NCBI GenBank assembly: GCA_964372135.1
Contig: CAYJPS010000002.1
Location: 1,979 to 65,978 of the forward strand
From: an uncultured Treponemataceae bacterium
GTDB lineage: Bacteria > Spirochaetota > Spirochaetia > Treponematales > Treponemataceae
Length of the DNA stretch: 64,000 bases
Direction of reading: 5' to 3'
Both the position numbers and the translations under genes were made by a program. Each line of letters opens with the position of its first letter. The stretch's first letter is position 1. The notes under the pieces are model-generated. The model was not told the origin of the DNA. It worked only from the letters and a program-made list of their open reading frames with translations, and searched no databases. Of the stretch, positions 767-57,425 are shown in pieces.

Positions 767-771
767 ACCGT

Positions 772-6619: not shown

Positions 6620-6625
6620 TTATTC

Positions 6626-6654
6626 ATTATACCGTAATAAGGCGTAAAAGAAAA
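6626..6654 (-). promoter_or_regulatory. sigma70-type promoter, leaderless 6619 CDS
   Basis: On the minus strand, TATAAT (6626-6631) sits 6 nt before the ATG (6619). The -35 is weak (TTTTCT) at 17-nt spacing. No SD. Confidence 0.45.
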
Positions 6655-6730
6655 GAGGATTATTTGTCATTGGCTGCATGTTTTTGTGAAAAAAAATTAA
6701 ATCAGAAAAAAACCAATCCCAAGATCGCTT

Positions 6731-13789: not shown

Positions 13790-14074
13790 AATTCGTAATT
13801 CGTAATTCGTAATGAAATTAATGCTTCATTCTGATTTTTGCGTCTCCCACCAAGACTGGTCATTTTTAAATCCACAGATTTCACAGATGACGCAGATTTT
13901 TATTTTTGAGTATTGAATTTTATTGCGAAAACCACCACAATAGTAAAAGCAAAAATAATTATATTTTTGACATGTTTTAGTCTTCATTTTATCTAAAAAT
14001 TTCTGTAGAATTTTCCAGTAAAAATCCCCAGCAATCTGTAAATACCTTTCCGCTAATTCCTAATTACAATCCCC
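13790..14074. repeat. family 1 composite repeat element, copy at tRNA-Pro/ileS intergenic
   Basis: In order: 3 tandem AATTCGT heptamers (13790-13810), cattctgattttt, ctcccaccaagactggtcat, atccacagatttcacagatgacgcagatt, an internal ~110 nt similar to 45.43-45.55 kb, then aatctgtaaa...ctaattcctaatt. Confidence 0.7.
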
Positions 14075-17100: not shown

Positions 17101-17329
17101 AAATGAACGAAAAGAAAAAGGACTTGAAGTAAGTGATAGAATAAACCTATGCGTGTCAAGTAGCAGTAAAGATGATTTTGAAGATCTGAACAAAGCCTTT
17201 GATGATTTCGTCGATTATATTTCTAGTGAAACACTTTGCGTAGAGGCAACATGGGTTGACTCTATTACAAAAGGAACAGACATCGAAGCAGGCGACTGCA
17301 CTTGGAGGATTTCAATTGAAAAAGCATAA
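14138..17329 (+). CDS. ileS: isoleucine--tRNA ligase (long, type 2-like form)
   Basis: 1063 aa with PPFATGLPHFGHF (HIGH region), KMSKSLKNY (KMSKS) and an editing-domain insertion. TTG start with GTGAGG RBS 8 nt upstream. Confidence 0.95.
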   Translation: MYQNVDPKVNFSKQEETILEFWKKNDIFKKSIDAREGQAEYVFYDGPPFATGLPHFGHFIPNTIKDIIPRYQTMKGKKVERRFGWDCHGLPVENLIEKELGLNSKTDIEKFGVDKFNEACRESVLRYVNEWKQTITRLGRWVDFENDYKTMDSSYMESIWWILKTLWEKNLLTEGFYILPYCPRCATVLSNHELSLGGYKDVHDPAVTVRFKIKEGNANVTDIENTYFLAWTTTPWTLPSNLGLAVGPDVDYVKIKDGDAFYIFAQSRLSAYYKNEEDYSIVWTKKGSELKDMRYEPLFPYFAEHANATEDYPKSIGAFRVFVGEFVTTEDGTGIVHTAPGFGEEDNKLFKGTNIPTVCPIDAECKFTNEVSDYEGRFVKECDKDIIERLKNEGSLVKRDQILHSYPHCWRCGSPLIYRAIGSWFVGVESIRDKLLKANDQITWQPEHIKAGRFGKWLEGARDWAISRNRYWGNPIPVWKCDDCGKNICVGSRDELKELSGQYPEDLHKHFVDKIEIPCECGKTMKRVPEVLDCWFESGSMPYAQNHYPFENKEYFEGHYPADFISEGLDQTRGWFYSLTVLAAALFEKPAFKNCIVNGLILASDGKKMSKSLKNYTDPAIVMDQFGADAIRMFLIHSAAVKADDLKYSDEGVRDVLKGVLIPLWNSYSFFVTYANIDGLKASGKAFDNALPVNPLDRWILSITQKMVKDVTEAMDNYDLSKAIDPIVLYIDQLNNWYIRRSRRRFWRSENDGDKTEAYETLYSALKTFTQVAAPVIPFITEAMWQNLRLGDDKESVHLCDYPQYDESKRDLSLEFEMDTVQKAVSMGRSLRYQYNLKIRQPLKSVEFVTRNPEEKTVLLAMEESIREELNVKKIVFHEREDELVEYKAKANFRTLGKELGPLMKKASSIIEELDQNAIQSLLEGSTLSIDVEGKTVELTEEKIIVERIEKANLKVLNEGTLTVALDSEITEELRLEGYVRDLVRGIQNERKEKGLEVSDRINLCVSSSSKDDFEDLNKAFDDFVDYISSETLCVEATWVDSITKGTDIEAGDCTWRISIEKA

Positions 17330-18194
17330 CTATTTTTTTGCATTAACCATTTTAATTATTCTTGCTCTTACCGGCTGTGCTACTATGCCAGACTTCACAA
17401 AAGAGATAGACCCACTAACTATTTTTGATGAAAATGCTACAATGTATGCACATGTAAAAATATCAGGAAATGAGGGTGTATTAGAAAACCTTATTCTTAA
17501 TAATATTGAGGGAATGGATGAAGACTCATTAGATACTATTCTTGAGCGAAGTCATTCACTGTATATTGCAGTTTTTGAGGAAACTGCAAGTACACCTGCA
17601 TATATTCAACTTGCACTTCAAGGCTCTTTTCCAGTATTATTTGTCAATGCCTCCCTCAACTCAAATAGGGGCTGGCAAAACCATAGTGCAGACATTGACG
17701 GTAGTACCTATAGGTACAAACAACATTCTACAGGAATAGAACTTGCAACTCTTTCTTCAAATCTCATTGTATTATCAAGCCACAATGTAAGCAGAATGCA
17801 AAACAGATTTATGAAATCCTTGTTTAATACCATTGTATTCCCTGTAGCCTACGATGAACAAGGTATAGCTAATTCAATCAACACATTATTTATGAATGAT
17901 TCATCAATTGCTTTTTATTTTCCTGAAGCTAAGTCTCTCATTTCATCTATGATTCCTATTCCCATTGAGCTTGCAGTTGATTATGCGTATGCATCTATAA
18001 CCATTATAGATGATGAAAACTTTTTGCTTTCGGTACAATTAAAAATGCAGGATGAAAGACTGGCAAGAGGAACCATGACATTGCTGTCTCTTGCACTACT
18101 TGGATCAAATATAAAAGCAGAGCTTCTAGAAGGCGGAATCATTGCACTCTCAGATTTACCTCTTAGCGCTACTTTTTTAGAAGAAATGTTTTAA
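17316..18194 (+). CDS. putative lipoprotein
   Basis: I place the start at TTG 17316, preceded by GGAGGA (17304-17309); it overlaps the ileS stop. The N-terminus (M)KKHNYFFALTILIILALTGCATM has lipobox LTGC. Confidence 0.6.
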   Translation: MKKHNYFFALTILIILALTGCATMPDFTKEIDPLTIFDENATMYAHVKISGNEGVLENLILNNIEGMDEDSLDTILERSHSLYIAVFEETASTPAYIQLALQGSFPVLFVNASLNSNRGWQNHSADIDGSTYRYKQHSTGIELATLSSNLIVLSSHNVSRMQNRFMKSLFNTIVFPVAYDEQGIANSINTLFMNDSSIAFYFPEAKSLISSMIPIPIELAVDYAYASITIIDDENFLLSVQLKMQDERLARGTMTLLSLALLGSNIKAELLEGGIIALSDLPLSATFLEEMF

Positions 18195-19930: not shown

Positions 19931-21004
19931 ATGAAAGACAATTCAAAAATAATACTAAAAGCAGAAGCACTTGACGGCTATTTAACAGAAAAAGATCAAG
20001 CTTATCTTTCAAAAATGGATAAACTCTATGATGAAACAATGGCTTCTTTTAAGATTATTGCTTCAGGTGGATTTGGATCAACCCTAGCACAAGAAGAAAA
20101 AAAGATTATTTCATCTTTTAACGAAATGGGCCAGTTTATGCAAGAAATTTGCAAAGAAGTTCCTGCACTTAAAGTTTTTTCATTTGAAACAGACCCTTCA
20201 GCCCATGCAGAAGCCTCTCGTGTAATAGCAAAACTACGCGACACCAGAACAGGCCACGATGAGTTTGTGTATTATACACAGAGAGCGTATGAAATGCTTT
20301 TTAGAATGGCGTATGCAGGAAATCAAACTGAAAACAAAAACTATCTTGTGGTAAAAACACCTGTAACCGTACCAGTACAAAACTATTCAGTTCATAAAAT
20401 ACCAGATATTGACTATAAAATTGAAAACACCGTAATGTGTGTTATGCTTAGAGGAGCCCTACTTCCTTCTATGATTATGTCAAAAGAATTTGAAGAATAT
20501 TCATCTCACGGATATGTGACACCTTTTGCATTATTTAAGATAAAGAGAGATGATACGAAAAAAGAATCAAATATGGAATACATATTAGATTTACAGAAGT
20601 CATTTTTTTCTTTAGAAGAACTCGATGGAAAAGATTTGGTTTTTGCTGATCCAATGAACGCAACAGGCGGCTCACTTGTAACAATTGTAAACTATTTATT
20701 AGAAAATGGTGTAAAACCAAAGTCAATTAAGTTTTTTAACGTAATTTCAGCCCTTAAGGGAAGTTTACGAATTGTTAGAGCCCTTGAAAACTGTACATGT
20801 TATACCTTATGGATGGATCCTGTTTTAAATGCTTCAGCGTATATTATGCCAGGCCTTGGAGATGCAGGAGATAGGCTTAATGGAGTTGATACAGAAGAGA
20901 ATCAGCGAAACATTATTCAATTAATTGCAGACTATGGTTCAAACATATCAGGGCTTTATCGCTCGCAATTAAACAAAATAGAGCAAACAGTTTTGGGTCA
21001 ATAA
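19931..21004 (+). CDS. uracil phosphoribosyltransferase-family protein with ~150-aa N-terminal extension
   Basis: The C-terminal part has the PRPP-binding loop [14 protein letters not shown] and the UPRT signature [15 protein letters not shown]. Confidence 0.65.
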
Positions 21005-21618
21005 TGAAACCTATTGTTTCTTTGCTATGCGCATTTTTATATATCCTTATGTTTGCTTCCTGTGCAAGTTCAAGTAAGGTAAAGAATGATTTAATAGACA
21101 ACGAAAAATTACTTTCTGAATACGCACTTTTAGCACAGGAACATTCTAACTTAGGAGAACATGAAAAAGCGCTAGAACTTTTACTTGAGGCGGAAAGTCT
21201 TTCAAGCAAAAACAACGAATTAACATATATGATAGCTCGAACTGCAGCGCTTGCTAAACAATGGCCAATTGCTATAGAGCAGTATGAATTGCTCCTTAAG
21301 CAAGATTCAGAAAACCTATTACTACAAAAGTCTATTGCGTGGATTTATGCACAAAGCGGAGATATTAGCACTGCTGAAAACATGTACGAATCTTTATACG
21401 AAAAGCATAGTTATGATAAAGACATCTGTACTAATTACATCCTTGTGTTGGCTGCTAATAACAATCAAGAAAAGGCATTAAGCATTCTCACCGAATATGC
21501 TTCTATATACCCAGAAGAAGCAAATATTTCTGAACTTAGAGAAATAATAAACAGCAAAGAAAATTCAGAGGAACATCAATCTTCTAATGAAACAAATAAC
21601 GAAACCTCTATAGAGTAG
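21004..21618 (+). CDS. TPR-repeat lipoprotein
   Basis: [23 protein letters not shown] (lipobox FASC), followed by helical TPR-like repeats (A..Y..LL..D..N). The start overlaps the upstream stop (ATAATG). Confidence 0.55.
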   Translation: MKPIVSLLCAFLYILMFASCASSSKVKNDLIDNEKLLSEYALLAQEHSNLGEHEKALELLLEAESLSSKNNELTYMIARTAALAKQWPIAIEQYELLLKQDSENLLLQKSIAWIYAQSGDISTAENMYESLYEKHSYDKDICTNYILVLAANNNQEKALSILTEYASIYPEEANISELREIINSKENSEEHQSSNETNNETSIE

Positions 21619-23077
21619 AGTTAGAAACATACTGGCTGTATTTTTCAGGACTCACTCTAAAGGCAACAATAGGAACATCTTCTTCCATAAATGATCTAGC
21701 AACAGCCTGTGAAGCTTCTGTAATTATTCTACTTCCTGGAAGCATACGTAGTGCTCTTGTAGAAAGACCTATCCCAATTGATGTATCAGTAAGCTCTTCA
21801 TTACTTAAAAGCTCCGACAACAAACGGTATAATTCTTCAGTCAACAGCATTGATTGGTCTAAATTTACATCCAGCATAATTCCAGCAAAGCCATCAGCCT
21901 TATATTCAAATACAAGGTCACGATACTTGAAATAATTTAAAAGTAAGGTTGCTATCTTTTTTTTAATTGCTATATTGCTTTCTACACCTTTTACTTGTAT
22001 AAAAACTAAAGCGAGATCTTGCTCTGATGATGCAGCACGTCTCAACTCTGAATCTAAACGTGTTTCTAAGTATGATTCCCAGCCAATGCCCGTGGAATCT
22101 GAAAAAAGTCCTTTTGGATCATTTGACGGAGAAGCAGCAATAGCGTCTTCTTCTTCAACACTTGCATCATCCTTAGTTACAGTTACATTTTGTATATTTA
22201 CAGTCTCAGAAACTTCTTCTTTTTCACTTACAAGATTTGAATTATTAGCAGTTTCTTCATGCACATATTCTTCAACAAAATTTAGATCGTATCCTGCATC
22301 ATCATCATCAATTGCTTGCTCATGTTCTGATTCTCGTATTTCATCGTGAATTTCATCAACCGTATCTTTAACTTCACTTTCTTCTGATGATTCTTTTTCT
22401 GTTCCTACAAAAAAATTATCCCACGAACTTTCTGTTTCCTTAAAAACAACAGGTATTGTTTCACGCTGGTTTTCTACAGTTTCATTATACTTTTTGTATG
22501 AATCATTTTTAGGCCCAATACGCATAACTGCTGTCGATTGTGAATTTGACAAAGATGCATACACAATTATAACTACAAGAAACAATGTATATGCCAGAAT
22601 AATTAAAAAAGATACCCTTGCAGAATTGTATATATCTTCAGGGCGCAAAATGTAGCTTACCGCATTTAACACACTACTTGAACCACTTTGGCTTAAAATT
22701 GACATTGAATGCGTTTTTAACATTGGAGAAGAACTTAATAACATTGGCATATTATTTGTGTCAAATTGAATGACGTTGGAAGAAAGCGGATACGCAAAAA
22801 TTGGCGTATTATTTTCTGAAAAAATAACAGCACCTATGTATGAGTTTTGATCAACGGCATTTTTTACATTTTGATAATAGAGCTCAAAATCTTCCGCATC
22901 TTTCAAAGACATATAAGAATTGATGTCTGCTTGTTGAACAAACGCAGAAAACTCATTCTGAGATTGCTCTTCACCACGAATCATAGTTGCATAAATGGAA
23001 ACACCAAAGTAGACTATAGACAAAATGAATACTATTACCCCACTATATGCAACAAACTTGTATTTATTACCACCCAT
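21608..23077 (-). CDS. membrane protein with periplasmic loop, acidic linker and a possible degenerate GGDEF-like C-terminal domain
   Basis: Two TM helices (FVAYSGVIVFILSIVYFGV; FLIILAYTLFLVVIIVYASL). The C-terminus LALVFIQVKG...RDLVFEYKADGFAGIMLD...IGIGLS...ASQAVARS follows GGDEF-domain spacing but has ADGFA in place of GGDEF. Confidence 0.4.
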   Translation of the reverse strand: MGGNKYKFVAYSGVIVFILSIVYFGVSIYATMIRGEEQSQNEFSAFVQQADINSYMSLKDAEDFELYYQNVKNAVDQNSYIGAVIFSENNTPIFAYPLSSNVIQFDTNNMPMLLSSSPMLKTHSMSILSQSGSSSVLNAVSYILRPEDIYNSARVSFLIILAYTLFLVVIIVYASLSNSQSTAVMRIGPKNDSYKKYNETVENQRETIPVVFKETESSWDNFFVGTEKESSEESEVKDTVDEIHDEIRESEHEQAIDDDDAGYDLNFVEEYVHEETANNSNLVSEKEEVSETVNIQNVTVTKDDASVEEEDAIAASPSNDPKGLFSDSTGIGWESYLETRLDSELRRAASSEQDLALVFIQVKGVESNIAIKKKIATLLLNYFKYRDLVFEYKADGFAGIMLDVNLDQSMLLTEELYRLLSELLSNEELTDTSIGIGLSTRALRMLPGSRIITEASQAVARSFMEEDVPIVAFRVSPEKYSQYVSNSTL

Positions 23078-36257: not shown

Positions 36258-37481
36258 CTACCCTATCTTATCCTGAATAAATTTTTCATCTATATGATTC
36301 CTGTCTACAATAAACCCTGTTAAATTTGTTAAAAACGAAACTTCGTCTGCTTTTTTGAAATTGCGCGGAACTTTTTGTCCATCAGTAATATATGATACAG
36401 ATTTTTGCTTTTCATCTAAAACACTAATTACGGTACCCATTGTGTCAGTTTCATCCAACTTTGTAACGATAACGGAGTCGTATCCAAATGTCTCATACTG
36501 TTGCAAAATTGTTCTAAGATCATTAGCTTTTGTTGGCGCAGAAACAGTTAAAAATGTTTTTAACTTGTGTGCTTTTAAATCTAACTTTGTTCGCAATTTT
36601 GCTAAACTATCATAATCTTTAGGACTATGACCTGCTGTATCTATCAGTATTACATCAACATCCCTACCATACAGCGTTAACAAATTTTGTAAATCCTCTA
36701 TTGAATCTGCATATTCAACAGGAATCCCCATATGCAAGCCATAGGTTTCCAGTTGTTCTTTTGCTTGAACTCTAACATTATCAATTGTAATGAGGCGAAT
36801 ACTTAAACCTTTTGGAACACCGACATTCCCAATACCACTAAAATACGCTGCAAGCTTTGCTATGGTAGTTGTTTTACCAATACCAGTTGGGCCAACAAGT
36901 ACAATGATTTCTGGTCGCTCAGTTGTGGAAATATCTGTAATCTGAATTGATTCCCCTATCCAGTCAATTACCGTTTTTTGAATTAAGTCGAAGTCTTCTA
37001 AATCATCAATAGAAAATTCTTTTTTAATTCGTTCCGTAATTTTTTTAATATACTCAGGAGTAAAATCATTCCCCTCTAGCAATTGCTTAATTTTCACGAT
37101 TGAAGCTGGTTCATCTTGCTGATGCATATATACGTTATCAGTAATATGACTTCGTAGCTCTTGTATTTCATCCAAAATAAGCTTCATTTGTGGACTTTGA
37201 ACATTTTGATTTGCCTCAAGAATTTTAGTTCTTTCTTCGTTAAAATCCATTGGCTGCGTAGTTGGCAAGCCTTGAAATGGGCGTTTTTGTTCTGTTAATA
37301 AGGGTACGTACCAAACTGTGCATTGCTTTCGCTTAATAGGTCCGAAAATCTTTTCATACGACTCTTGTTTTCGAACTATTTTATAGTGCTCTCCGTAAAG
37401 CTCTTTTATTCGCTTTCTGCATGCTTCTTCTGTGTCTGCAATTATTTGAATAGGTTTTTGTGTAAATGCATCAGTTACCAA
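36258..37481 (-). CDS. flhF: flagellar biosynthesis SRP-type GTPase FlhF
   Basis: GPTGIGKTTTIAKLAA, DTAGHSP and TKLDET G-motifs. It overlaps the flhA stop. Confidence 0.9.
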   Translation of the reverse strand: MVTDAFTQKPIQIIADTEEACRKRIKELYGEHYKIVRKQESYEKIFGPIKRKQCTVWYVPLLTEQKRPFQGLPTTQPMDFNEERTKILEANQNVQSPQMKLILDEIQELRSHITDNVYMHQQDEPASIVKIKQLLEGNDFTPEYIKKITERIKKEFSIDDLEDFDLIQKTVIDWIGESIQITDISTTERPEIIVLVGPTGIGKTTTIAKLAAYFSGIGNVGVPKGLSIRLITIDNVRVQAKEQLETYGLHMGIPVEYADSIEDLQNLLTLYGRDVDVILIDTAGHSPKDYDSLAKLRTKLDLKAHKLKTFLTVSAPTKANDLRTILQQYETFGYDSVIVTKLDETDTMGTVISVLDEKQKSVSYITDGQKVPRNFKKADEVSFLTNLTGFIVDRNHIDEKFIQDKIG

Positions 37482-39552
37482 CTTTTATCTCTCCTAGATT
37501 TTCTAGCTTTATATCATTTGTTATTTCCGGAACCGAGATTACCACTAAGTTTGGCATTTCTCTTTCTGTGCTTGCTTTTACTAAGGCCCTTGCCTCTTCT
37601 GGACATAAAATAATTGGCATATACCCCTTGCCTTGTGAAAGTGCCACAGAAGAACTTAGGGCTGTAATCCAAGCACGTTGCAACATTGGATCTAAAGCTG
37701 CTATTGGACCATTAACTGTTTCAACTTTACTTTCAATTAATTTCTGTAAAAAGTCTTGGGCTACAGTTATTACATGCAATGTTTTATTTTCATCTGCATA
37801 TTGAAGACATATTTGCCTACCAAGCGCTTGACGAACTTTTTCAACAAGAATATCGGCTTTTTTTGTAACGGCACCAAAATCGGCGATAGTTTCAAAAATA
37901 ACAACCATATTTCTAACAGAAACCTGTTCTCTAAGCAGTCCTTGTAACACTTTTTGTATTTCGCCAATAGTAAATATTTTTGTTGCCTCTTCGACAGCAG
38001 TGGGATATTCTTTTTTTAGAGTATCAACAATTGACTGAACTTCTTGCCTTCCAAGAATTTCTGCTGCATGAGCTTTTATAAGCTCAGTTAAATGAGTTGC
38101 GATAATTGTTGGAGGGTCTACTACAGCATATCCTGCACGCTCTGCCCTATCCTTGTCTGCTTCTGAAACCCATATTGCGGGCAATCCAAATGCTGGATCT
38201 GTTGTTGATTCTCCTTGTAATTCTTCTGAAACCGTTCCTGTATTCATGCACATATATGATCCCATTCTAATACGGCTGGAACCAACTTCTATGCCTTTAA
38301 CTTTAAAACTATATGCATTTGGCTCTATGTGCATATTATCCGTAATACGAATTCTCGGAACAACAAGACCTAAATCTAGGGCAAACTCACGCCTGATTCT
38401 TGTTACACGCTCTAAGAGTTCTGCACCTTTTTCTTTGTCTACTAATGGAATCAAGGCTAAGCCCAATTCTAACGAAAGTGGATCTAATGGCACTACAGGA
38501 CTTATTTCTGCAATTGGTGTACCTTGAGTTTGTTGCATTTCTTTTTCTTTATTAAGTTTTGCTTCAAAAGATGCTTTTTCAAGTGACTGTAATCTTCTAC
38601 CAATAAAAAAGAGCGCTACGCCTATCGGTGTAAGTATATACCACGGAAAACCAGGAACCAATCCCATTAAGGCCATAGTAACACCTGAAACATAAAAAAC
38701 CCATGCATTTTGCGAAAATTGTTTTTGTATATCTGTTCCAAGAGTTGTTTTTCCATCGGACACTGACCGTGTAACAATAATACCAGTTGCAACCGAAATA
38801 AGGAGTGACGGGATTTGAGATAAAAGACCATCGCCAATGGTAAACTTTGCGAATATTTGAATAGCTGAAGCAAAATTTTCACCACTTGTCATACCAACTA
38901 TGACTCCACCTATAAGGTTGATAAGGGTTATAAAAATGCCTACTTTAACGTTACCCGAAACAAATTTCGTTGAACCGTCCATAGAACCATAGAAATCTGC
39001 TTCTCTTTGCACATCCGCTTTTCTAATTCTGGCTTCTTCTTCGGTAATTGCTCCTGAGTTATACTCTGCTTCAACAGCAGCTTGTTTCATAGGCATCGCA
39101 TCTAAGGTAAAGCGCGCTGCTACTTCCGCGATACGAGTAGCTCCCTTTGTAATAACGAAAGTTTGCACCGCAATAAGAATAATAAAGATAACCAGCCCTA
39201 TAACAAGACCCCTTGTTCCACCGGTTCCTACAACGAATGTTCCAAACGCGGTAACAAGTTGTCCCTTAAAGTCTGTACCATCCATAAGGATAAGACGTGT
39301 TGAAGACACATTAAGTGCTAAACTGAATACAGTAGAAACAAGCAATACTGTTGGAAAAGAGGAAAAATCTATTGCACGGGGGGTATACATAACTATTAAC
39401 AAGATTATCAGCGCAATCAAGAGATTAAGTGACATAAATGTATCAAGTAATATTGGTGGAAGAGGAATAATCAACATCATTATAACCGTAATTACTACAA
39501 TAGCAACTACTAAGTCTGAGCTTCTTCCAAAACGCTGTGCGACGTCAGCCAT
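37471..39552 (-). CDS. flhA: flagellar type III export apparatus protein FlhA
   Basis: 693 aa with an N-terminal 8-TM domain containing FPTVLLVSTVFSLALNVSSTRLIL and ITKGATRIAEVAARFTLDAMPMKQ, plus a cytoplasmic C-terminal domain. GGTGGG RBS. Confidence 0.97.
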   Translation of the reverse strand: MADVAQRFGRSSDLVVAIVVITVIMMLIIPLPPILLDTFMSLNLLIALIILLIVMYTPRAIDFSSFPTVLLVSTVFSLALNVSSTRLILMDGTDFKGQLVTAFGTFVVGTGGTRGLVIGLVIFIILIAVQTFVITKGATRIAEVAARFTLDAMPMKQAAVEAEYNSGAITEEEARIRKADVQREADFYGSMDGSTKFVSGNVKVGIFITLINLIGGVIVGMTSGENFASAIQIFAKFTIGDGLLSQIPSLLISVATGIIVTRSVSDGKTTLGTDIQKQFSQNAWVFYVSGVTMALMGLVPGFPWYILTPIGVALFFIGRRLQSLEKASFEAKLNKEKEMQQTQGTPIAEISPVVPLDPLSLELGLALIPLVDKEKGAELLERVTRIRREFALDLGLVVPRIRITDNMHIEPNAYSFKVKGIEVGSSRIRMGSYMCMNTGTVSEELQGESTTDPAFGLPAIWVSEADKDRAERAGYAVVDPPTIIATHLTELIKAHAAEILGRQEVQSIVDTLKKEYPTAVEEATKIFTIGEIQKVLQGLLREQVSVRNMVVIFETIADFGAVTKKADILVEKVRQALGRQICLQYADENKTLHVITVAQDFLQKLIESKVETVNGPIAALDPMLQRAWITALSSSVALSQGKGYMPIILCPEEARALVKASTEREMPNLVVISVPEITNDIKLENLGEIKVGN

Positions 39553-39632
39553 ATTCCCACCTACTGTTTGATATAGGATAAACCCCCATTTACCCTTGTA
39601 AGACGAGTATAAATTCCGACCTACTTTAAATA

Positions 39633-39641
39633 ATTATAACA
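39633..39641 (-). promoter_or_regulatory. possible extended -10 promoter for flhA
   Basis: Minus strand TGt-TATAAT about 80 nt upstream of the flhA ATG, at the inner edge of the inserted island. Confidence 0.35.
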
Positions 39642-39706
39642 TAGTTTGAAAATAAAATAAAGTAAAAAGTGAGTTTTTTTGTAAAAAAAGTGATTTTTTT
39701 TAGGGG

Positions 39707-39967
39707 TATCCGCAAGAATGACGCAAATTTTTTTATTGCGAATACCACTTGCCTATCATTCTGATTTTTTCACCACATCTATCCCCGTGAAGAATCTCCG
39801 TATCGGCGTAGAAAATTTTTATCTTTGCTTCTACCACTAAGATTGGTCATTATTTAATTCCTAATTCCCAATTCGTAATTAATTAAAATCTGCGGTTCCT
39901 TTTTCTCCCTCGCTTTACCCACCACCATTAGGAATTAGGCATTTATAATTTCTAATTAATTTATTCG
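39707..39967. repeat. family 1 repeat mosaic (C-like, module A copy 1, module B copy 1)
   Basis: atccgcaagaatgacgcaaattt. Module A at 39743-39850. Module B at 39856-39939 (aattcct aattccc aattcgt aattaatt aaaatctgcggttcctttttctccctcgctttacccaccacc attaggaattagg). Confidence 0.8.
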
Positions 39968-39978
39968 TCCTAAAAAGC

Positions 39979-40851
39979 TTAAAAGGAGGAAGTATTAAAA
40001 TAACGGATAGCACGAACGGCTTCTGTTTTGTCTTTCTCTCCGTAGGTCAGAGCGCCAGAGTAGAAATTCTGCCCATACATAAGATTATCCTGTTGCTCAG
40101 ACGACGACCAAAGAGTTCGAGTTTCGAATATATATTCTGGCACTCTTGCATTTGTGTATGCCTGTTGAAGTTCTTCTATTGTCGGCAAATACCAATCCGT
40201 AAAATCACCACCATCATAATCCTTTGCAATACTGATACTGTTGGAGTTATGGGTTTCATGAAACATACCACTTGCTTGATACCAATTATACTCACCTAGA
40301 TTATCACTTATTTCTTTATACTCACTGGTAGTACTGTCTGCATAAAAAATTATACCGCCGCCCGGACCTGTGTCACCTATCTTATACACGACAGTGAGCA
40401 ATGTAGCTATATACAAAGAATTTTCGCCTTCTACCATTTTTTTAGTTTTAGAGCGACCTTCTTTTATCTCACCATCCTGTTCTACTCGCACCTTTGCATA
40501 CACTATTTTTCCTACGATTGCAAGGTTGTCAAATATAACACTTTCATCTTCTTTTACTACCAGCGTTTTACTTATAATTACACTATCATTACCTGCATTG
40601 TGTAAACTTAACGTCATCTCAATACCATCGTCGTCAAAATCTATTGAACGTGTAAGGCCTATATTTTCATGACCACTTCCATTATAAGAGGCAGCTTGTA
40701 CACTGTCGTTTTTTAAAAATTCTTCAAGGGCGCTTTTACTTACCTTAAAGGTTATGTCAGTTGTTTCTTTTACGCTCCAAAGTGAATCGCAACTTATTAG
40801 TACGATTACTGCCATTACAAAAAGGGCTACTAAAAATAGTCTTTGTTTCAT
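39979..40851 (-). CDS. lipoprotein, shared N-terminal module plus DUF1566 (Lcl C-terminal)-like domain
   Basis: MKQRLFLVALFVMAVIVLISCDSLW has lipobox LISC. The C-terminus GPGGGIIFYAD...FTDWYLPTIEELQQAY...LWSSSE...VRAIRYF follows the DUF1566 pattern. GGAG RBS. Confidence 0.65.
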   Translation of the reverse strand: MKQRLFLVALFVMAVIVLISCDSLWSVKETTDITFKVSKSALEEFLKNDSVQAASYNGSGHENIGLTRSIDFDDDGIEMTLSLHNAGNDSVIISKTLVVKEDESVIFDNLAIVGKIVYAKVRVEQDGEIKEGRSKTKKMVEGENSLYIATLLTVVYKIGDTGPGGGIIFYADSTTSEYKEISDNLGEYNWYQASGMFHETHNSNSISIAKDYDGGDFTDWYLPTIEELQQAYTNARVPEYIFETRTLWSSSEQQDNLMYGQNFYSGALTYGEKDKTEAVRAIRYFNTSSF

Positions 40852-40888
40852 ATTTTCTCCAAAAAAACTTTTTACCTATTTTTTATAT

Positions 40889-40916
40889 ATTATGTAGTAT
40901 ACCGCATGACTGTAAA
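40889..40916 (-). promoter_or_regulatory. sigma70-type promoter of lipoprotein gene a
   Basis: Minus strand TTTACA (40911-40916), 16 nt, CATAAT (40889-40894). The same arrangement is conserved at 42884-42911. Confidence 0.5.
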
Positions 40917-40980
40917 TTATTCTACATTTTTGCAAAATATGTCGTAGAATTTTACATTTTTTACGATTAAAGAACGCAAC

Positions 40981-41654
40981 TACCACTTGCCTGTCATTCT
41001 GATTTTTTCACCACATCTATCCCCGTGAAGAATCTCCGTATCGGCGTAGAAAATTTTTATCTTTGCTTCTACCACTAAGATTGGTTATTTTTAAACCACA
41101 GATTATTTTATAATTCCTAATTCGTAATTAATTAAAATCTGCGGTTCCTTTTTCTCCCTCGCTTTACCCACCACCATTAGGAATTAGACATTGCGAATCA
41201 GAAATTAATCTACCACCAAGATTGGTCAGGTGTTATCCACAGATTACACAGATTACGCAGATTATTATCTGTCGCATTTTGAACTACTCTTACATTTACC
41301 ACAAAAAATTTATAAGTCAAAACTATTTATAGTTTTGTCACGAATTTGTCTTTACGCTTTGTTAAAAATTACATAGCACGTTTCAATAGAAATCCCATTA
41401 ATCCTTTAATCTGTGGTTAAAACTTCTCCCTCGCTTTACTCGCACCATTAGGAATTATGCATTGCGAATCAGGAATTAATCTCCCACCAAGATTGGTCAG
41501 GTGTTATCCACAGATTATTTTATAATTCCTAATTCCTAATTCCCAATTCGTAATTAATTAAAATCTGTGGTTCCTCTTTCTCCCTCGCTTTACCCGCCAC
41601 CATTAGGAATTATGCATTGCGAATCAGGAATTAATCTCCCACCAAGTCTGATTA
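40981..41654. repeat. family 1 repeat mosaic: module A copy 2, three module B copies and one full composite element
   Basis: Module A at 40981-41088 (2 mismatches versus 39743-39850). Module B at 41112-41229, 41407-41499 and 41524-41654. A C/D interior lies at 41230-41406. Confidence 0.85.
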
Positions 41655-42848
41655 AGGCGCAGCAGAACGAGCCACTCGAAAACCAACGGACGCATCCCGA
41701 AAGGTAGGCACATTGTTGACGCGGTTGCTTACGGTCAAATTATTTTCAGTATTGTTCCAATGTCCGCCACGATACACACGGTTCGTAGAGCCAGCAAGCG
41801 GCGTGTCATAACACCATTCCCACACATTACCACTCATGTCATACAAGCCTAAGGCGTTGGCATTTCCGGTTTTTTCAGTCGGTAAACTTTCATTCCTTCC
41901 TGCTGTTCCAACTATATGTGTTGTAGCATTTGCATTATCCTTATACCATGCATAGCTTCCTAAGTCAGTGTCTGTACCAGCATAGATGGTACGTTCTTTT
42001 GCTGCTCCATCAAGACTAAACCCACCATGTCCAGCTGCGTATTCCCATTCCCTTTCTGTTGGTAAGCGGTAGCCTGTTCCGCCTATTATGGTTCCGTCTG
42101 ATTCATAATAAGGGCTTAAATTTTCTTTTTCACTTAGCGTATTACAAAACTCTACCGCATCATTCCAACTTACATTATATGCAGGTTTATTATCTCCAAG
42201 TCCTTTTTCCAAAGTTGGGTCAGCTCCGGGCCATGTTCCCATTACATCTAGCCACTGACCCTGCGTTACCTCGGTTTCACCTAGGTTAAAATTTGCGACT
42301 ATGACGTTTTCTTGTAGAGCTACATTACCACCAGCTGTTCCTTGAAACATGTATGTGCCACCTGGTATGCCTATTAACTTTCCAACCGTTGAACTTTCAA
42401 TATCTATAGGTACTAAGCCACCAAATACAAACTCAAGTCTATTAAGTCCTTCTTTTACAACAATGGAATCAGATTTTTCAATTCGTGGCTTGTATCCCTC
42501 GTGCATAAACTCTATTTGTGCATACACGGCTTCCCCCACAATGTATAGTTTTTCAAATGTTATAGTGTCGCTAAGAGAATCTCCAAGGTACACTGTTTGT
42601 TTAGCCCAAACCTCATCGGTATTTGCATTGTGTATAGATACTGTGGCACTAATGCTTGTATATAGTCCTGCACGAGACATGCTTTGCACGCTTGCCCTTT
42701 CTTCTTCAAATTCCTCGAGCCATTCTTGCGGAATGGTAAAGCTAATTTCAACTGGCTTTTCTGCTTTATGATCCCAGAGCGAATCACAACTTGTTAGTGC
42801 GAATACTGCTATTACAAAAAGAGACACTAAAAATACATTTTGTTTCAT
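41652..42848 (-). CDS. lipoprotein, shared N-terminal module plus formylglycine-generating-enzyme (FGE/SUMF1)-type C-lectin-fold domain
   Basis: MKQNVFLVSLFVIAVFALTSCDSLW. The C-terminal domain has GYRLPTEREWEYAAG, LGLYDMSGNVWEWCYD, RVYRGGHW and VGFRVARS. Confidence 0.8.
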   Translation of the reverse strand: MKQNVFLVSLFVIAVFALTSCDSLWDHKAEKPVEISFTIPQEWLEEFEEERASVQSMSRAGLYTSISATVSIHNANTDEVWAKQTVYLGDSLSDTITFEKLYIVGEAVYAQIEFMHEGYKPRIEKSDSIVVKEGLNRLEFVFGGLVPIDIESSTVGKLIGIPGGTYMFQGTAGGNVALQENVIVANFNLGETEVTQGQWLDVMGTWPGADPTLEKGLGDNKPAYNVSWNDAVEFCNTLSEKENLSPYYESDGTIIGGTGYRLPTEREWEYAAGHGGFSLDGAAKERTIYAGTDTDLGSYAWYKDNANATTHIVGTAGRNESLPTEKTGNANALGLYDMSGNVWEWCYDTPLAGSTNRVYRGGHWNNTENNLTVSNRVNNVPTFRDASVGFRVARSAAP

Positions 42849-42883
42849 ATCTTCTCCAAAAAAAAATTACATATTTTTTATAT

Positions 42884-42911
42884 ATTATGTAGTATAACGT
42901 ATTACTGTAAA
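42884..42911 (-). promoter_or_regulatory. sigma70-type promoter of lipoprotein gene b
   Basis: Minus strand TTTACA (42906-42911), 16 nt, CATAAT (42884-42889). It lies within a ~118-nt block shared with 40852-40970. Confidence 0.5.
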
Positions 42912-42980
42912 TTATTCTACATTTTTGCAAAGTATATCGTAGGAATTTTACACTTTTTAGGGTAAAAAAATGACACAAAC

Positions 42981-43245
42981 AGCCACCACTAAGACTGGTC
43001 ATTATAATTCCTAATTCACAATTCGTAATTAATTAAAATCTGCGGTTCCTTTTTCTCCCTCGCTTTACCCACCACCATTAGGAATTAAGCATTGCGAATC
43101 AGGAATTAATCTCCCACCAAGATTGGTCATGAATCATCCGCAAGAATTACGCAGATTTTTTTTCGAAGGCGTGGACTGTTGGATTTGCTACGAAGATTGT
43201 TGTGATTGTATAAAGGTTTTATCCGCAAATGTACGCAGATTTTTA
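42981..43245. repeat. family 1 repeat mosaic (junction motif, module B copy 5, two C-like motifs)
   Basis: agccaccactaagactggtcat. Module B at 43006-43130. atccgcaagaattacgcagatt and atccgcaaatgtacgcagatt. Confidence 0.8.
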
Positions 43246-43334
43246 CTTTTTCATGTAGTAAAAACTTTTTTATGCGCTACGAGGATTTGGTTTTTTAAGT
43301 GAGGTGTTGTTTTTCGAGTACAAAAAAGGCACGT

Positions 43335-43375
43335 TTCAAAATACAATTGCAAGGGCAAGCACCGTGCTGTACCCT
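43335..43375 (-). terminator. possible terminator after the LRR lipoprotein gene
   Basis: Imperfect hairpin agggcaagcac-cg-tgctgtaccct (43352-43375). On the minus strand it is followed by tgcaattgtattttg. Confidence 0.35.
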
Positions 43376-43389
43376 CACAATTGTTATGC

Positions 43390-45201
43390 TTACTTTTCTT
43401 GTATCTTTGCTGAGTGGACACTCCAACCTTGTGCACCTTGATAAGCATCACCACTACCTGCAGGTACATAAATAGTGGTTAAAGCTGTAGCTCCATCAAA
43501 TGAGTCAGTTTGCAAAGCAGGAGGAACAGGATCCCTAAGGGTAACTGTTTCTAAACTAGTACAGCCCATAAAAGCAGACTGATTAATACTTTTAACACTA
43601 GAAGGAATATCGATACTTGTTAAACCTGTATTCTGAAATGCAAAATTATCAATACTTGTAACATTAGTGGGGAGAATTATGCTTGTTAATTTTTCACAAC
43701 CCACAAATGCTCTTATACCTATGCTTGTAACACTTGAAGGAATTATTACATTAGTTAGTCCTGTACAACCTGAGAAAGTGGCCTCTCCAATACTTGTAAC
43801 CCCTAAAGGAATTTCTATACTAGTTAGTCCTGTACAACCTGAAAAAGCTGCAACACCAATATTTGTGACACTAGAAGGTATATCTATATTTGTTAACTCT
43901 GTACAATCTGCAAATGCACTACTACCAATACTTGTAACACTAGAAGGTATATCTATACTTGTTAAACCCGTATTCTTAAATGCACTACCACCAATACTCG
44001 TAACTCCAAAAGGAATAGCAAAGTGTTCATCAGTTTTAGAGGGCAGATACAGAACTAAGCTTTTATTTTTACCTTTTGTGTAAATAACATTATCAATTGC
44101 TTCAAACGTAGCATTTTTTGGATGTACAGTTATTTTTTGTATTCCTGAATCCTGCACAATAAAACTACCAATACTTGAAACAGTACTGGGTATACTTATC
44201 TCTGTTAAACTCGTGCAATTATAAAATGCATAATCCCCAAGAATTTTAAGACCTTCATTTAGAATAACACTCCTAAGGTTAGGCGTATTTGAAAATGGCT
44301 CATCCTTAAGTTCCACAATAAACTCGGAAAAAATGATGCTATTTATTGCTGTATTGTCTTCAAAAGCAAAAGTACTTATAGAAGTTATTGGTTTACCCTT
44401 ATATACAGGGGGTATTATAACATCTGCATCACTATCAGTATTATAACCAATAGTTAGTTCATCTGGTCCATTATCCTCAACCTCTAATTCCGTGTACTCC
44501 CCGGGGTTTGCCCATCGTGCATAGAGGGTATCGCTTTCGGTTACTTCGTATGGGAACACTACCCAGTCGTTTCCATTTCTTGTTTTTGTCCAACCTAAGA
44601 AAAACTCTTTGTCACTTGGAACAGTCATAGAAGCACTTTCGCCTGGTAGTGTCGCTTTTTCTAAGTGTAATACCGATTGAGTATCCACTGCATCGATTCC
44701 ACCGTTTGAATCAAAACTTAATTTCCAAGTAACTTTTTCTGCTTCTCCCATGTCAAACGTAACGGGATTATTACCTTCAACTACCGTAAGAGGGTCTGAT
44801 TTTCTACTTCTTGATAAGTGCCCATATTGCGTAAGCTCTACTTGTACATACACGGTACTTCCCACAATATACAAAGGTTGAAAGCGTATGCTTTCATTAA
44901 GATTGTTTCCAAGATTTACCGCTTGCTCTGCTAAAACGGCTCCTGTTTCTGCATCTTGAATGGATGCTTTAGCGGTAATGCTTGTGTTTACACTTGCCCT
45001 TTGGAGGCTTTGCCCACCTGAAGCACGTTGCGCCTGTTGTACAGCCTCTGCTTCTTCTACAAAAGAATCTAGCCACTCTTGAGGAATAGTAAAGCTAATT
45101 TCAACCGCTTCTTTATTTTCGTGTTCCCAAAGTGAATCGCAACTAAAAAATGCAAACACTGCCATAATAAAAAGAGACACTAAAAATGCTTTTTGTTTCA
45201 T
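43390..45201 (-). CDS. lipoprotein, shared N-terminal module plus BspA-type leucine-rich-repeat (LRR_5) surface protein
   Basis: I set the start at ATG 45201 (GGAGGA 4 nt upstream): MKQKAFLVSLFIMAVFAFFSCDSLW. The C-terminal half holds ~10 tandem ~23-aa repeats IPSSVTSIG.SAF.GCT.LTSI. The 51-codon extension in the ORF track lacks support. Confidence 0.8.
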   Translation of the reverse strand: MKQKAFLVSLFIMAVFAFFSCDSLWEHENKEAVEISFTIPQEWLDSFVEEAEAVQQAQRASGGQSLQRASVNTSITAKASIQDAETGAVLAEQAVNLGNNLNESIRFQPLYIVGSTVYVQVELTQYGHLSRSRKSDPLTVVEGNNPVTFDMGEAEKVTWKLSFDSNGGIDAVDTQSVLHLEKATLPGESASMTVPSDKEFFLGWTKTRNGNDWVVFPYEVTESDTLYARWANPGEYTELEVEDNGPDELTIGYNTDSDADVIIPPVYKGKPITSISTFAFEDNTAINSIIFSEFIVELKDEPFSNTPNLRSVILNEGLKILGDYAFYNCTSLTEISIPSTVSSIGSFIVQDSGIQKITVHPKNATFEAIDNVIYTKGKNKSLVLYLPSKTDEHFAIPFGVTSIGGSAFKNTGLTSIDIPSSVTSIGSSAFADCTELTNIDIPSSVTNIGVAAFSGCTGLTSIEIPLGVTSIGEATFSGCTGLTNVIIPSSVTSIGIRAFVGCEKLTSIILPTNVTSIDNFAFQNTGLTSIDIPSSVKSINQSAFMGCTSLETVTLRDPVPPALQTDSFDGATALTTIYVPAGSGDAYQGAQGWSVHSAKIQEK

Positions 45202-45267
45202 ATTGTCCTCCAAAGTAACTACAATAAAGTATAACGCAGTACTGAAATAAATTCCAGATTTTGGACA

Positions 45268-45276
45268 ATTATAGCA
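45268..45276 (-). promoter_or_regulatory. possible extended -10 promoter of lipoprotein gene c
   Basis: Minus strand TGc-TATAAT about 65 nt upstream of the ATG. Confidence 0.35.
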
Positions 45277-45357
45277 TAGAAAAATAAGTCTATCATGTGC
45301 CATTTGGCACATTTTTAAAGGAATTTTGCACTTTTTACGGTAAAAAAATGACACAAA

Positions 45358-45630
45358 CAGCCACCACTAAGACTGGTCATGTTTTATCCACAGATTACAC
45401 AGATTAGGCAGATTACAACTATTGCGTATTCGACAACCCTAACATCTGCCACCAAAATAGTAAAAGCAAAACTAGTTATAGTTTTGTCACGAATTTGTCT
45501 TTACATTTTATTAAAATTTCTGTAGAACGTTCCAATAGAAATCCCACTAATCTGTGCAATCTGTGGTTCCTTTTTCTCCCTCGCTCTACCCGCACCATTA
45601 GGCATTTCTAATTCGTAATTAGGAATTAAT
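45358..45630. repeat. family 1 composite repeat element abutting and overlapping the flhB stop
   Basis: In order: gccaccactaagactggtcat, atccacagattacacagattaggcagatt, a ~120-nt interior similar to 41290-41400 and 13920-14030, aatctgtgcaatctgtggttcctttttctccctcgctctacccgcaccattagg, then a heptamer arm. Confidence 0.8.
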
Positions 45631-46725
45631 TGTCTTTCCTTTCATTGCATAGATCTTGCTTAAAATCGTGGCCAGTACCGTATAATATGTTTCAGGAATA
45701 ATATCGCCAACTTCTACATTGGCATACAAGGCGCGCGCCAAGGGTCGGTTTTCTATCATTGGAACATCGTTCTCTGTTGCTAAGCGTTTAATTTGTTGCG
45801 CAAGTTCATCCTGACCTTTTGCGGTGACCATTGGTCCCTGCATTGTATCTCTTTCATATAAAATTGCAATAGCAAAGTGAGTCGGGTTGGTAATAATAAC
45901 ATCTGCTTTGGCAACATTTTCTCTAATGCTATTTTGTAACAGTTCCCGCATAAATTGCTTTAGCTTACTTTTTACAAGAGGATCCCCTTCAAGGGTTTTA
46001 TATTCTTCTTTTACTTCTTGCTTAGTCATTTTTAATGAATCAATAAATTGCTTACGCTGCACTAAATAATCCGGAATAGCAATGCCCATAAAAATAAAGG
46101 TAGCAATTAATAATATTTTTGCCGCCATTTGCGCTATGTGCGTAATTCCTTGCCATAGGTTTTGATCTAAGAGCGACAGTAGCGTGGGTAAATCCGAAGA
46201 AATAACTGTATAAGATGCTATAAAAATAACGACTACTTTTAATATTGATTTAAATATATTAAATACGCCTTCAAAAGAAAACATTGTTTTTTTAAAATAT
46301 TCGCCAAATTTGGGAATAATTTTAGAAAACTTTGGCTCTATAGGTTTTGTTGAAAAAATAAAACCTCTATTTTGAATTAGATTTGCTAATATAGCACCAA
46401 TAATCGCGGTAATAACTATCGGAGTTACCATTCTAATTAAATAATAAAAAAAACCGTAAGCAAGACTCGCGTTTATTTCTGCTGTAGTGCTAATTTGAAA
46501 ATAGTATAATAGGATTTCAAGAAAATTTGTAAACAACCATGGAGCTAGAATAATCAGCGCAATAGTGGGAAAAAGCATTACAAGAGCAGCACTTAACTCT
46601 TGACTTTTGGCAACTCGGCCTTCTTCTCTAGCTTTACGAAGCTTATGCTCGGAAGGATCTTCTGTTCGACCTTCATCTTCTGCTGCAAACCATTGTAAAT
46701 CTAAATCTTCTGAATAAAAACTCAT
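45619..46725 (-). CDS. flhB: flagellar type III export apparatus switch protein FlhB
   Basis: 368 aa with the N-terminal EKTEDPSEHKLRKAREEG-type motif (GRTEDPSEHKLRKAREEGRV), 4 TM helices and the autocleavage site NPTH (VIITNPTHFAIAI). Confidence 0.95.
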   Translation of the reverse strand: MSFYSEDLDLQWFAAEDEGRTEDPSEHKLRKAREEGRVAKSQELSAALVMLFPTIALIILAPWLFTNFLEILLYYFQISTTAEINASLAYGFFYYLIRMVTPIVITAIIGAILANLIQNRGFIFSTKPIEPKFSKIIPKFGEYFKKTMFSFEGVFNIFKSILKVVVIFIASYTVISSDLPTLLSLLDQNLWQGITHIAQMAAKILLIATFIFMGIAIPDYLVQRKQFIDSLKMTKQEVKEEYKTLEGDPLVKSKLKQFMRELLQNSIRENVAKADVIITNPTHFAIAILYERDTMQGPMVTAKGQDELAQQIKRLATENDVPMIENRPLARALYANVEVGDIIPETYYTVLATILSKIYAMKGKTINS

Positions 46726-57162: not shown

Positions 57163-57425
57163 TTCCTAATTTTTGCGTATACCACAAAGACTGGTCATTA
57201 TATATCCACAGATTAAAGGATTACGCAGATTTTTATTTTTGAGTGCTTAAAATTTATTATGCTCACCACAAAAAACTAAAAAAATTATATTATTATTGTA
57301 AAGGAATCTCACTATGAAGATAACATCTCTGTAGCACTGTCAAATAAAAATCCCATAAATCTGTGTAATCTGTGGTTCCCTTTCTTCCTTGCTCTACCCA
57401 CCCGCCAGATTCGTATTCATGAATT
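57163..57425. repeat. family 1 composite repeat element between the convergent helicase and 57428 genes
   Basis: In order: taattcctaatt (contains the helicase stop), taccacaaagactggtcat, atccacagattaaaggattacgcagatt, an interior, then aatctgtgtaatctgtggttccctttcttccttgctctacccacc. Confidence 0.7.

Follow-up and report, generated by a model that had tools for sequence, protein, structure and literature searches.

A conserved N-terminal lipoprotein module with different C-terminal domains in the flhB-flhA gap of an uncultured Treponemataceae genome

Three lipoprotein genes, here named LpA, LpB and LpC, separate flhB from flhA in the flagellar export operon of an uncultured Treponemataceae bacterium. 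They are encoded in a stretch of 64,000 nucleotides (assembly GCA_964372135.1, contig CAYJPS010000002.1, positions 1,979 to 65,978 of the forward strand), which is called the window throughout; coordinates refer to it unless another locus is named. The three proteins begin with a similar signal peptide and a homologous module that starts at the lipobox cysteine, mostly with the residues CDSLW, and they end in C-terminal domains (payloads) that show no sequence similarity to one another. Here we interpret them as members of a lipoprotein family in which a common module has been shuffled among different payloads, a reading to which, taken as a whole, we assign a probability of about 0.7. An earlier note on the same DNA had proposed three paralogous lipoproteins, a common anchor displaying interchangeable binding domains and cassette-style domain shuffling, and the outcome for these proposals is given with the results.

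The CDSLW module in three paralogous lipoproteins

The genes, their modules and the flanking flagellar genes are as follows.

45619 to 46725, minus strand: flhB, the upstream flank (Pfam Bac_export_2, E 4e-113)
43390 to 45201, minus strand: LpC, 603 aa from its MKQ start; signal peptide, module, one Flg_new-like repeat, BspA-type LRR_5 array
44740 to 45141, minus strand: LpC module, Cys21 to residue 154 (CDSLW ... GNNPVTF-DMGEA)
41652 to 42848, minus strand: LpB, 398 aa; signal peptide, module, linker, TvpA-like FGE-sulfatase (C-type lectin fold) domain
42423 to 42788, minus strand: LpB module, Cys21 to about residue 142
39979 to 40851, minus strand: LpA, 290 aa; signal peptide, module, Lcl_C/DUF1566 domain (residues 186-283, coordinates 40003-40296)
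40402 to 40791, minus strand: LpA module, Cys21 to about residue 150; second module subfamily (W-x-V-..-DITF)
37471 to 39552, minus strand: flhA, the downstream flank (Pfam FHIPEP, E 2e-239)

All three N-termini fit the pattern MKQ..FLV.LF..AV....SCDSLW in a MAFFT alignment. The signal peptides and lipoboxes, assigned by eye, consist of MKQ(R/N/K), a hydrophobic stretch and L-I-S-C, L-T-S-C or F-F-S-C with the cysteine at residue 21, and each protein has the positive n-region, hydrophobic h-region and lipobox cysteine of a signal peptidase II substrate. With the signal peptide cut off (from residue 22) and composition correction on, pairwise BLASTP aligned LpB with LpC at 47% identity over 131 aa (E 4e-39), LpA with LpC at 29% over 131 aa (E 2e-10) and LpA with LpB at 32% over 111 aa (E 1e-8). 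The earlier claim of paralogy, with a common signal peptide and N-terminal part, is thus borne out, and the alignment continues for about 110-130 aa past the signal peptide. An origin of the similarity in a signal peptide plus low-complexity sequence, or in chance, is excluded by these E values of 1e-8 to 4e-39, by the conserved core positions of a 32-sequence alignment, by a module fold that is predicted with confidence and by purifying selection on the module.

The longest open reading frame (ORF) of LpC reaches 45354, and the 603-aa reading starts at 45201, where the MKQ start is backed by the paralogue alignment and by an upstream GGAGGA ribosome-binding site. The public gene call for LpC (P0001, 637 aa) begins 34 codons upstream of this start (extra 45202-45354) and is probably mis-annotated.

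The C-terminal parts of the three proteins, compared among themselves by BLASTP, gave no match better than E 0.1. Pfam assigns LRR_5 (PF13306) to three stretches of LpC (E 9e-74; 245.9 bits against a cut-off of 27.7), FGE-sulfatase (PF03781) to residues 157-394 of LpB (E 1e-34; 120.9 bits against 23.3) and, marginally, Lcl_C (PF07603, formerly DUF1566) to residues 186-283 of LpA (36.6 bits against 34.9). The C-terminus of LpA also matches the C-terminus of NCBIfam adhesin_Lcl (E 1.7e-8), and residues ~155-275 of LpC match Flg_new weakly, under the cut-off (E 1.4e-4). These are the DUF1566-like, FGE and BspA-type leucine-rich repeat (LRR) domains that the earlier note had named. It had called them unrelated, which holds for their sequences, but FGE-sulfatase and DUF1566 are perhaps related in fold; they are the two C-type-lectin-fold classes, CLec1 and CLec2, targeted by diversity-generating retroelements (DGRs) (PMC5758913).

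The module was searched for exhaustively with HMMER, using a module profile against 1.84 billion representative proteins (clusters at 50% identity) at E<=1e-3; this census was used in place of a word-indexed protein search with 3- and 32-sequence module alignments, which recovered nothing, the query proteins included. Thirty-three representatives carry the module, 18 of them at E<=1e-10, and three of the 33 are LpC, LpB and LpA themselves (E 2e-67, 1e-59 and 1e-50, respectively; these three built the profile), while independent members score down to E 1e-3. In 33 of 33 the lipobox cysteine is followed by [DNST]-x-[LFI]-W, mostly as CDSLW, and every match begins at that cysteine. The module is N-terminal and single-copy in all representatives, is 115-147 aa long and ends in a conserved G-x-N-x-L-x-[I/F] strand, within proteins of 290 to 2224 aa. 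In the 32-sequence alignment C1 and W5 are invariant, and L4, F17, F78, G85, Y89, S106 and N116 are conserved in at least 90%. The modules form two major subfamilies. A tblastn search found no further module copies in the 64-kb window.

No named domain was found to cover the module. Pfam-A 2025, searched with 32 module segments, had no family matched by more than one segment even at E<=10; nothing in NCBIfam r20 covers the module; a module profile search of PDB sequences gave a best E of 6 and nothing relevant; and Foldseek of the module model against the PDB returned no match at E<1e-3. The top Foldseek match was the pilotin lipoprotein ExsB (2YJL), which is not significant (E 0.015, TM-score 0.42, 12-14% identity), followed by generic Ig-like, C2 and GH2 sandwich domains. 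A transthyretin/CarboxypepD_reg-like core was considered and is unsupported by Foldseek or Pfam. The earlier note had not recognised the module as a named domain, and these searches agree with it; nor is it a described domain always found with the same partners, as the 33 representatives carry many different payload families. Sequence comparison confirms the CDSLW module as a lipoprotein family that appears to be previously undescribed and restricted to the Treponemataceae lineage.

The LpB module was modelled with AlphaFold2 from the 32-sequence alignment (A4) with a mean predicted local distance difference test score (pLDDT) of 81.6 and a predicted TM-score of 0.71. In the model an N-terminal tail of low confidence leads into a strand, a helix and a variable loop, followed by six strands, and the predicted fold would be a generic small beta-sandwich with one helix, an "Ig-like sandwich" at most. 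In a full-length LpB model the module is confident, the linker at 143-153 is of low confidence and the FGE domain is partly confident, with pLDDT below 50 at residues 290-387. The ratio of nonsynonymous to synonymous divergence (dN/dS) in the module is 0.16 for LpC and its relative M1 and 0.28 for LpB and its relative M2, and the module is under purifying selection.

Payload diversity and recombination at the module boundary

A genome scan recovered three relatives, M1, M2 and M3, all in one metagenome-assembled genome (MAG) of an uncultured Treponemataceae bacterium, CAYJLT01. The flhB-flhA interval of that genome holds a single gene, M1, which encodes the module followed by DUF285 repeats; M2 and M3 (module plus FGE) are located elsewhere in the genome. 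In the census, at least six payload types occur behind the module. The Pfam families found there among the 33 representatives (which bear P numbers; one protein may carry several families) are listed below, and GGGxY beta-helix repeats are present in several members.

FGE-sulfatase: 11 representatives
Flg_new: 10 representatives
LRR_5: 8 representatives
DUF285: 7 representatives
CHB_HEX_C_1 / Fn3_assoc: 2 representatives
Lcl_C: 2 representatives, more by motif

Closely related modules precede different payloads. The modules of LpC (LRR_5) and M1 (DUF285) are 83-84% identical in amino acid sequence, those of M1 and M2 (FGE) 78%, those of P0004 (DUF285) and LpC 70%, and those of P0009 (Flg_new-DUF285-beta-helix-Lcl_C) and P0010 (Flg_new-beta-helix-FGE) 68%. 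At greater distance, the modules of P0017 (CHB_HEX-LRR_5), P0019 (beta-helix-Lcl_C) and P0027 (Flg_new-FGE) are ~51% identical, and those of LpA (Lcl_C) and P0014 (FGE) 49%. FGE, LRR_5, DUF285 and Lcl_C are each seen in both major module subfamilies. Among 12 FGE-bearing members, relatedness of the FGE domain correlates weakly with that of the module (Spearman 0.36) and nearest neighbours are discordant; P0027 and P0010, for instance, have FGE domains that are 55% identical and modules that are 25% identical. Because related modules carry different payloads, domain shuffling is supported.

The same-locus comparison places the change of payload at the module boundary. DNA identity between LpC and M1 is 88-95% over most of the module and then drops to ~35%, and the best maximum-chi-square breakpoint lies at LpC codon 155, just past the GNNPVTF-DMGEA end of the module (Fisher p 3e-19). 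The cassette-style shuffling suggested in the earlier note, and the breakpoint that it had proposed to look for at the module/domain junction, are therefore both in evidence at this locus. Taken together with the close modules that bear different payloads, these comparisons support the view that the C-terminal domains have probably been exchanged repeatedly by recombination at the module boundary.

Recombination is also recorded in the 5' region. M1 and M2 have an identical 318-nt tract from -119 to +198 (promoter and first 66 codons), upstream of which they are unalignable and downstream of which they are ~25% diverged; it looks like a gene-conversion tract. The promoter regions of LpA and LpB are 88-91% identical and their coding regions 40-50%. 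Between the two genomes, synonymous divergence (pS) is 0.42 for the module against 0.66-0.68 for flhA, flhB and flhF, and the lower value of the module indicates exchange of the lipoprotein genes, whole or in part, later than the split of the species. Locus L007, from another assembly, has two neighbouring members whose modules are identical in protein sequence; the 5' ends of these genes are 93% and the 3' ends, with downstream FecR genes, 97% conserved, and the repeat payloads between these ends are rearranged. Compared with CAYJLT01, the window has an additional segment of ~3.5 kb with LpB and LpA, and copies of the motif AAATCTGCGT..TTGCGGAT mark its two ends.

About 700 bp downstream of M2 (L002 10075-10761) lies a gene for a PD-(D/E)XK nuclease-family transposase (Rpn-like, PF12784, E 5e-23), which is a possible agent of recombination there.

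Cellular location and alternative readings

We propose a protein composed of a type-II signal peptide, a module of ~115-145 aa from the lipidated cysteine and, joined on by a short linker, a payload that can be exchanged and is of adhesin or ligand-binding type (DUF1566/Lcl_C, TvpA-like FGE/C-type lectin or BspA-type LRR array). The module would form a membrane-proximal pedestal, possibly also a sorting determinant, that keeps the payload off the membrane, most likely at the cell surface. The family would have evolved by payload replacement at the module/linker boundary, by gene conversion between paralogues over the promoter and 5' region, and by duplication or insertion via short dispersed repeats, leading here to a three-gene array with a promoter-like site per gene in the flhB-flhA gap. 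We infer with good support that the proteins are lipid-anchored through Cys21 and that the module is their common membrane-proximal base. For surface-exposed adhesins or lectins the balance tips only slightly in favour, mainly because surface-exposed binding proteins with each of the three payload types are known; the payloads would then be expected to bind ligands. That the near-invariant CDSLW segment is a sorting signal is speculative. The earlier picture of a common anchor displaying interchangeable binding domains holds, across the 33 representatives, for the interchange of payloads; "anchor" and "display" are interpretation.

Several observations weigh against this reading. The first 10 residues of the module model, the CDSLW segment itself, have a pLDDT of only 55, and the family was found in MAGs only. 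M1 and M2 come from a metagenome co-assembly and their 318-nt identity could be an assembly artefact; both contigs run for >8 kb on each side of the tract. The segment with LpB and LpA is explained by an insertion or duplication in the window and also by a deletion between direct motif copies in CAYJLT01, and both fit. Asp at position +2 is an inner-membrane retention signal in E. coli, and the window lipoproteins have Asp at +2, so a periplasmic location is possible.

In a periplasmic setting the proteins would play a role at the periplasmic flagellum or cell envelope, and the module would dock a common envelope partner. We regard this as improbable, though it has several points in its favour besides the Asp at +2, which would fit a retention signal. 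FGE-fold lipoproteins such as PorK/GldK form periplasmic rings, and LpB has weak matches to GldK/PorK in NCBIfam and the PDB; two genomes carry family genes in the flhB-flhA interval, another two members are found close to fliS and flgN, and the module model comes closest in structure, if only weakly, to the pilotin ExsB. However, LpB scores 57.4 bits for NCBIfam GldK (cut-off 350) and 33 for GldJ (cut-off 458), far under the values that would place it in these families, and TvpA matches it better. Most family members stand in unrelated genomic contexts, and neither these contexts nor the different payload of CAYJLT01 at flhB-flhA is what a component of the flagellar operon would show; if the flagellar role were conserved, the LRR_5/DUF285 swap at that site would be hard to explain. 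A promoter-like site precedes each gene of the array separately, LpC has a terminator-like hairpin of its own, and LRR_5, DUF285 and Flg_new payloads are typical of surface proteins.

A further question is whether LpB, and possibly LpA, are remote targets of a DGR, so that the family would consist of TvpA/LdtA-like variable proteins with an added pedestal. This would be compatible with the module-payload reading and would add a second diversification mechanism to it. TvpA is a Treponema denticola lipoprotein with a C-terminal lectin-fold surface that is hypermutated by a DGR (PMC4891356) and is reported to be without FGE activity (PMC5758913); in T. denticola several FGE lipoproteins encoded away from the DGR are among its targets (PMC4891356, PMC5758913). 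The best PDB sequence match of LpB is TvpA (2Y3C, E 6e-22), and an Asn-rich stretch of LpB aligns with the TvpA variable region:

41679 to 41771, minus strand: LpB Asn-rich stretch RGGHWNNTENNLTVSNRVNNVPTFRDASVGF

Asn makes up 22.6% of this stretch against 6.8% overall. It is the sole part of the LpB 3' end that is unalignable with M2 DNA, both flanks being 84-88% identical, and its dN/dS is 0.85 against 0.41 for the remaining FGE domain. DUF1566, the domain of LpA, is the second major DGR target class (CLec2), with the Legionella surface lipoprotein LdtA as an example (PMC5758913). On the other side, neither a template repeat that matches the 3' end of LpB nor an ORF for a YxDD reverse transcriptase was found in the 64-kb window or the seven related loci (L001-L007). 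The variable codons among paralogues are not purely NNY and include E, Q, K and W codons, third-position differences, counted from the paralogue alignment, are about as frequent as those at first and second positions, and the C-terminus of LpA is not Asn-rich. A DGR link for LpB is thus plausible as a hypothesis rather than a finding, and remote targeting of these proteins seems to us unlikely on the balance of the points above.

LpB resembles TvpA as a Treponema lipoprotein with a C-terminal FGE-sulfatase-type C-type lectin fold, and TvpA paralogues are scattered over the genome and thought to be surface-exposed binders (PMC4891356). In TvpA, however, the FGE domain starts ~50 residues into the crystallised chain, which leaves no room for the module, and neither a template repeat nor a reverse transcriptase was found near LpB; an FGE payload is present in only 11 of the 33 family representatives. 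LpA resembles LdtA of Legionella pneumophila, which is displayed on the outer leaflet (PMC5758913), as a lipoprotein with a C-terminal DUF1566-type domain; LpA has no Asn-rich variable region, no DGR nearby and a marginal Pfam match.

The common promoter and 5' segment and the flanking repeats could also be taken for a programmed variation system that switches the payload on an expressed handle, as in the antigenic variation of mycoplasmas or relapsing-fever Borrelia. The identical 318-nt tract of M1 and M2, the similar promoter regions of LpA and LpB, the direct repeats that flank LpA and a module pS under that of the flanking genes would all be accounted for in this way. Yet each of the three genes is complete and has a start codon, a ribosome-binding site and a promoter-like site of its own; the array has no silent promoterless cassettes, no adjoining recombinase or invertase gene and no inverted repeats around a promoter, and the modules in the window, at 29-47% amino acid identity, are too dissimilar for frequent homologous exchange within the array. 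We consider such a system very unlikely here. The mycoplasma Vlp, Vsp and Vsa families are clustered paralogous lipoprotein genes with a conserved promoter, signal peptide and N-terminus, divergent C-terminal regions and recombination among copies; their variable parts are mostly low-complexity tandem repeats, and expression is switched by site-specific inversion or slippage. In the window, by contrast, globular domains unrelated to one another make up the variable parts, and nothing like a switching machinery is evident.

Other comparisons concern the payload arrays and the position of the module. LpC, with its strong LRR_5 array, is like the BspA/LrrA-type LRR_5 surface proteins of oral and gut anaerobes, and M1 and other members, with DUF285 arrays, are like the DUF285 "BspA-like" proteins of Mollicutes; here these arrays are placed on a lipid-anchored family module and are swapped for non-LRR payloads in close paralogues. 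The lipoprotein export signal of Bacteroidetes and the N-terminal tether of Borrelia lipoproteins are conserved or required segments right after the lipidated cysteine. CDSLW, near-invariant in the 33 representatives, has the same position, but it is unlike the acidic K-(D/E)2 type signal, and what comes after it is a folded domain instead of a disordered tether. ExsB, the pilotin of a type III secretion system secretin, is like the module a small beta-sandwich lipoprotein, by a match that is not significant.

A bolder combination of these ideas would make the CDSLW module a surface-display device, serving as sorting signal and pedestal for an unnamed lipoprotein flippase and as a DNA recombination handle, with a remote DGR hypermutating the FGE and DUF1566 payloads. 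We think it has a small chance of being correct; if true, it would amount to a two-tier diversification by domain swapping and retroelement mutagenesis.

Spacers, neighbouring genes and significance of the family

The four minus-strand spacers of the flhB-flhA gap are patchworks of two families of repeats, which make the insertion site repeat-rich. Their parts are as follows.

45202 to 45618, minus strand: spacer 1 (flhB to LpC), 417 nt; MITE-like element 45363-45606, D10 block 45319-45380, promoter-like site 45296-45268
42849 to 43389, minus strand: spacer 2 (LpC to LpB), 541 nt; terminator-like hairpin 43335-43384, R1 43005-43121, 63-bp block common with CAYJLT01 43232-43294, junction-motif copies 43205-43233 and 43132-43162, promoter-like site 42911-42884
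40852 to 41651, minus strand: spacer 3 (LpB to LpA), 800 nt; R1 copies 41530-41646, 41424-41499 and 41111-41220, MITE-like element 41212-41456, LpA direct-repeat arm 40981-41192, promoter-like site 40916-40889
39553 to 39978, minus strand: spacer 4 (LpA to flhA), 426 nt; second direct-repeat arm 39743-39943, junction-motif copy 39705-39735, flhA upstream region common with CAYJLT01 39553-39719

LpA, LpB and LpC each have their own sigma-70-like promoter match and ribosome-binding site. On its 3' side LpC has a strong hairpin with a U-run (dG -26 kcal/mol, z -3.3), and LpA is flanked by a direct repeat of 91% identity over 213 nt. The region upstream of flhA (39553-39640; L001 ~2800-2870) has an extended -10-like TGTTATAAT that is conserved in both genomes; since this region is kept in both, the lipoprotein insertion need not disturb flhA expression.

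Repeat R1 is ~100-120 nt long, with 17-bp terminal inverted repeats that form a long hairpin (RNA fold z -0.6 to -4.1). Copies at 43005-43121, 41530-41646, 41111-41220 and 39855-39943 were recorded, with R1 directly downstream of the LpB and LpA stop codons. R1 had no match in Rfam, nor did the region 39400-45800 as a whole at E<=1; R1 could be a terminator or stabiliser like a repetitive extragenic palindrome (REP). The second family resembles a miniature inverted-repeat transposable element (MITE) of ~190-250 nt with inverted ends of ~34 nt that bear the octamer AATCTGYG. This octamer occurs 24 times in the window against 4.1 expected, 16 of the 24 in the flhB-flhA spacers. The MITE-like element also adjoins an ileS-like tRNA synthetase gene (~13850-14050) and a UvrD-type helicase gene (~57180-57400) and is present in another MAG (L005 4083-4151); it is therefore a dispersed genomic repeat and not part of a lipoprotein cassette. 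The idea that intergenic repeats travel with the module genes was rejected, the repeats being absent around M2 and M3 and present beside housekeeping genes. A DnaA-box reading of TTATCCACA, found three times in the spacers, was likewise dropped: the sequence belongs to the MITE-like element, and its 4 matches, against 0.9 expected, do not amount to significant enrichment (2 of 100 shuffles yield at least as many).

At the loci examined, no neighbour gene is conserved across the whole module family. A FecR-domain gene lies downstream only of the DUF285-type members examined; it encodes a secreted protein of ~222-239 aa directly downstream of the lipoprotein gene (L005 9612-9818, L006 6556-7275, L007 5840-6508 and 9718-10386). 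L007 holds two copies of this gene, which was duplicated along with the lipoprotein gene, and these agree at 220 of 223 positions. Upstream, loci L005 and L007 have an OmpA-like gene; the window is without such a partner. At L004 two family-type genes (708-3275 and 3948-6686) are nearly tandem beside ftsH, fliS and flgN; one is P0017 (CHB_HEX-LRR_5), and the other encodes an 855-aa Flg_new plus FGE protein with the same length and Pfam content as P0027. Between them, on the opposite strand, lies a 133-aa ORF without Pfam match.

The window array is flanked upstream by fliO, fliP, fliQ, fliR and flhB and downstream by flhA, flhF and flhG; still farther downstream is a sigma-70-family factor gene that we take to be fliA-like. 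Elsewhere in the window, an ORF of the TP0453 outer-membrane-associated lipoprotein family (17256-18194, plus strand; Pfam E 1e-27) fits a genome of the Treponema lineage. The cumulative GC skew peaks at ~20000-22000 and gene orientation changes from plus to minus at ~21.6 kb (convergent), a pattern that resembles a replication-terminus-type junction.

Conserved N-terminal anchors that carry exchangeable binding heads are in principle well known, from mycoplasma variable lipoproteins, from DGR targets with N-terminal extensions and from polymorphic toxins. New are the CDSLW module itself, its strict placement at the lipidated cysteine, the breadth of payloads in a very narrow lineage and the clean payload swap at one locus. 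The family is tiny, with 33 clusters at 50% identity among 1.84 billion representatives, and its members come from uncultured MAGs only. Spirochaete surface lipoproteins are the main interface with hosts and neighbouring microbes, and their sorting and display in Treponema are poorly understood. With its compact, conserved form, its fixed place at the lipidated N-terminus and the many payloads that it accepts, the module is a candidate determinant of sorting and display, and it might serve as a scaffold for spirochaete surface display. The family extends the TvpA-type lectin-fold lipoproteins to a new architecture, and it provides an unusually clean natural case of payload replacement at a domain boundary in a syntenic locus.

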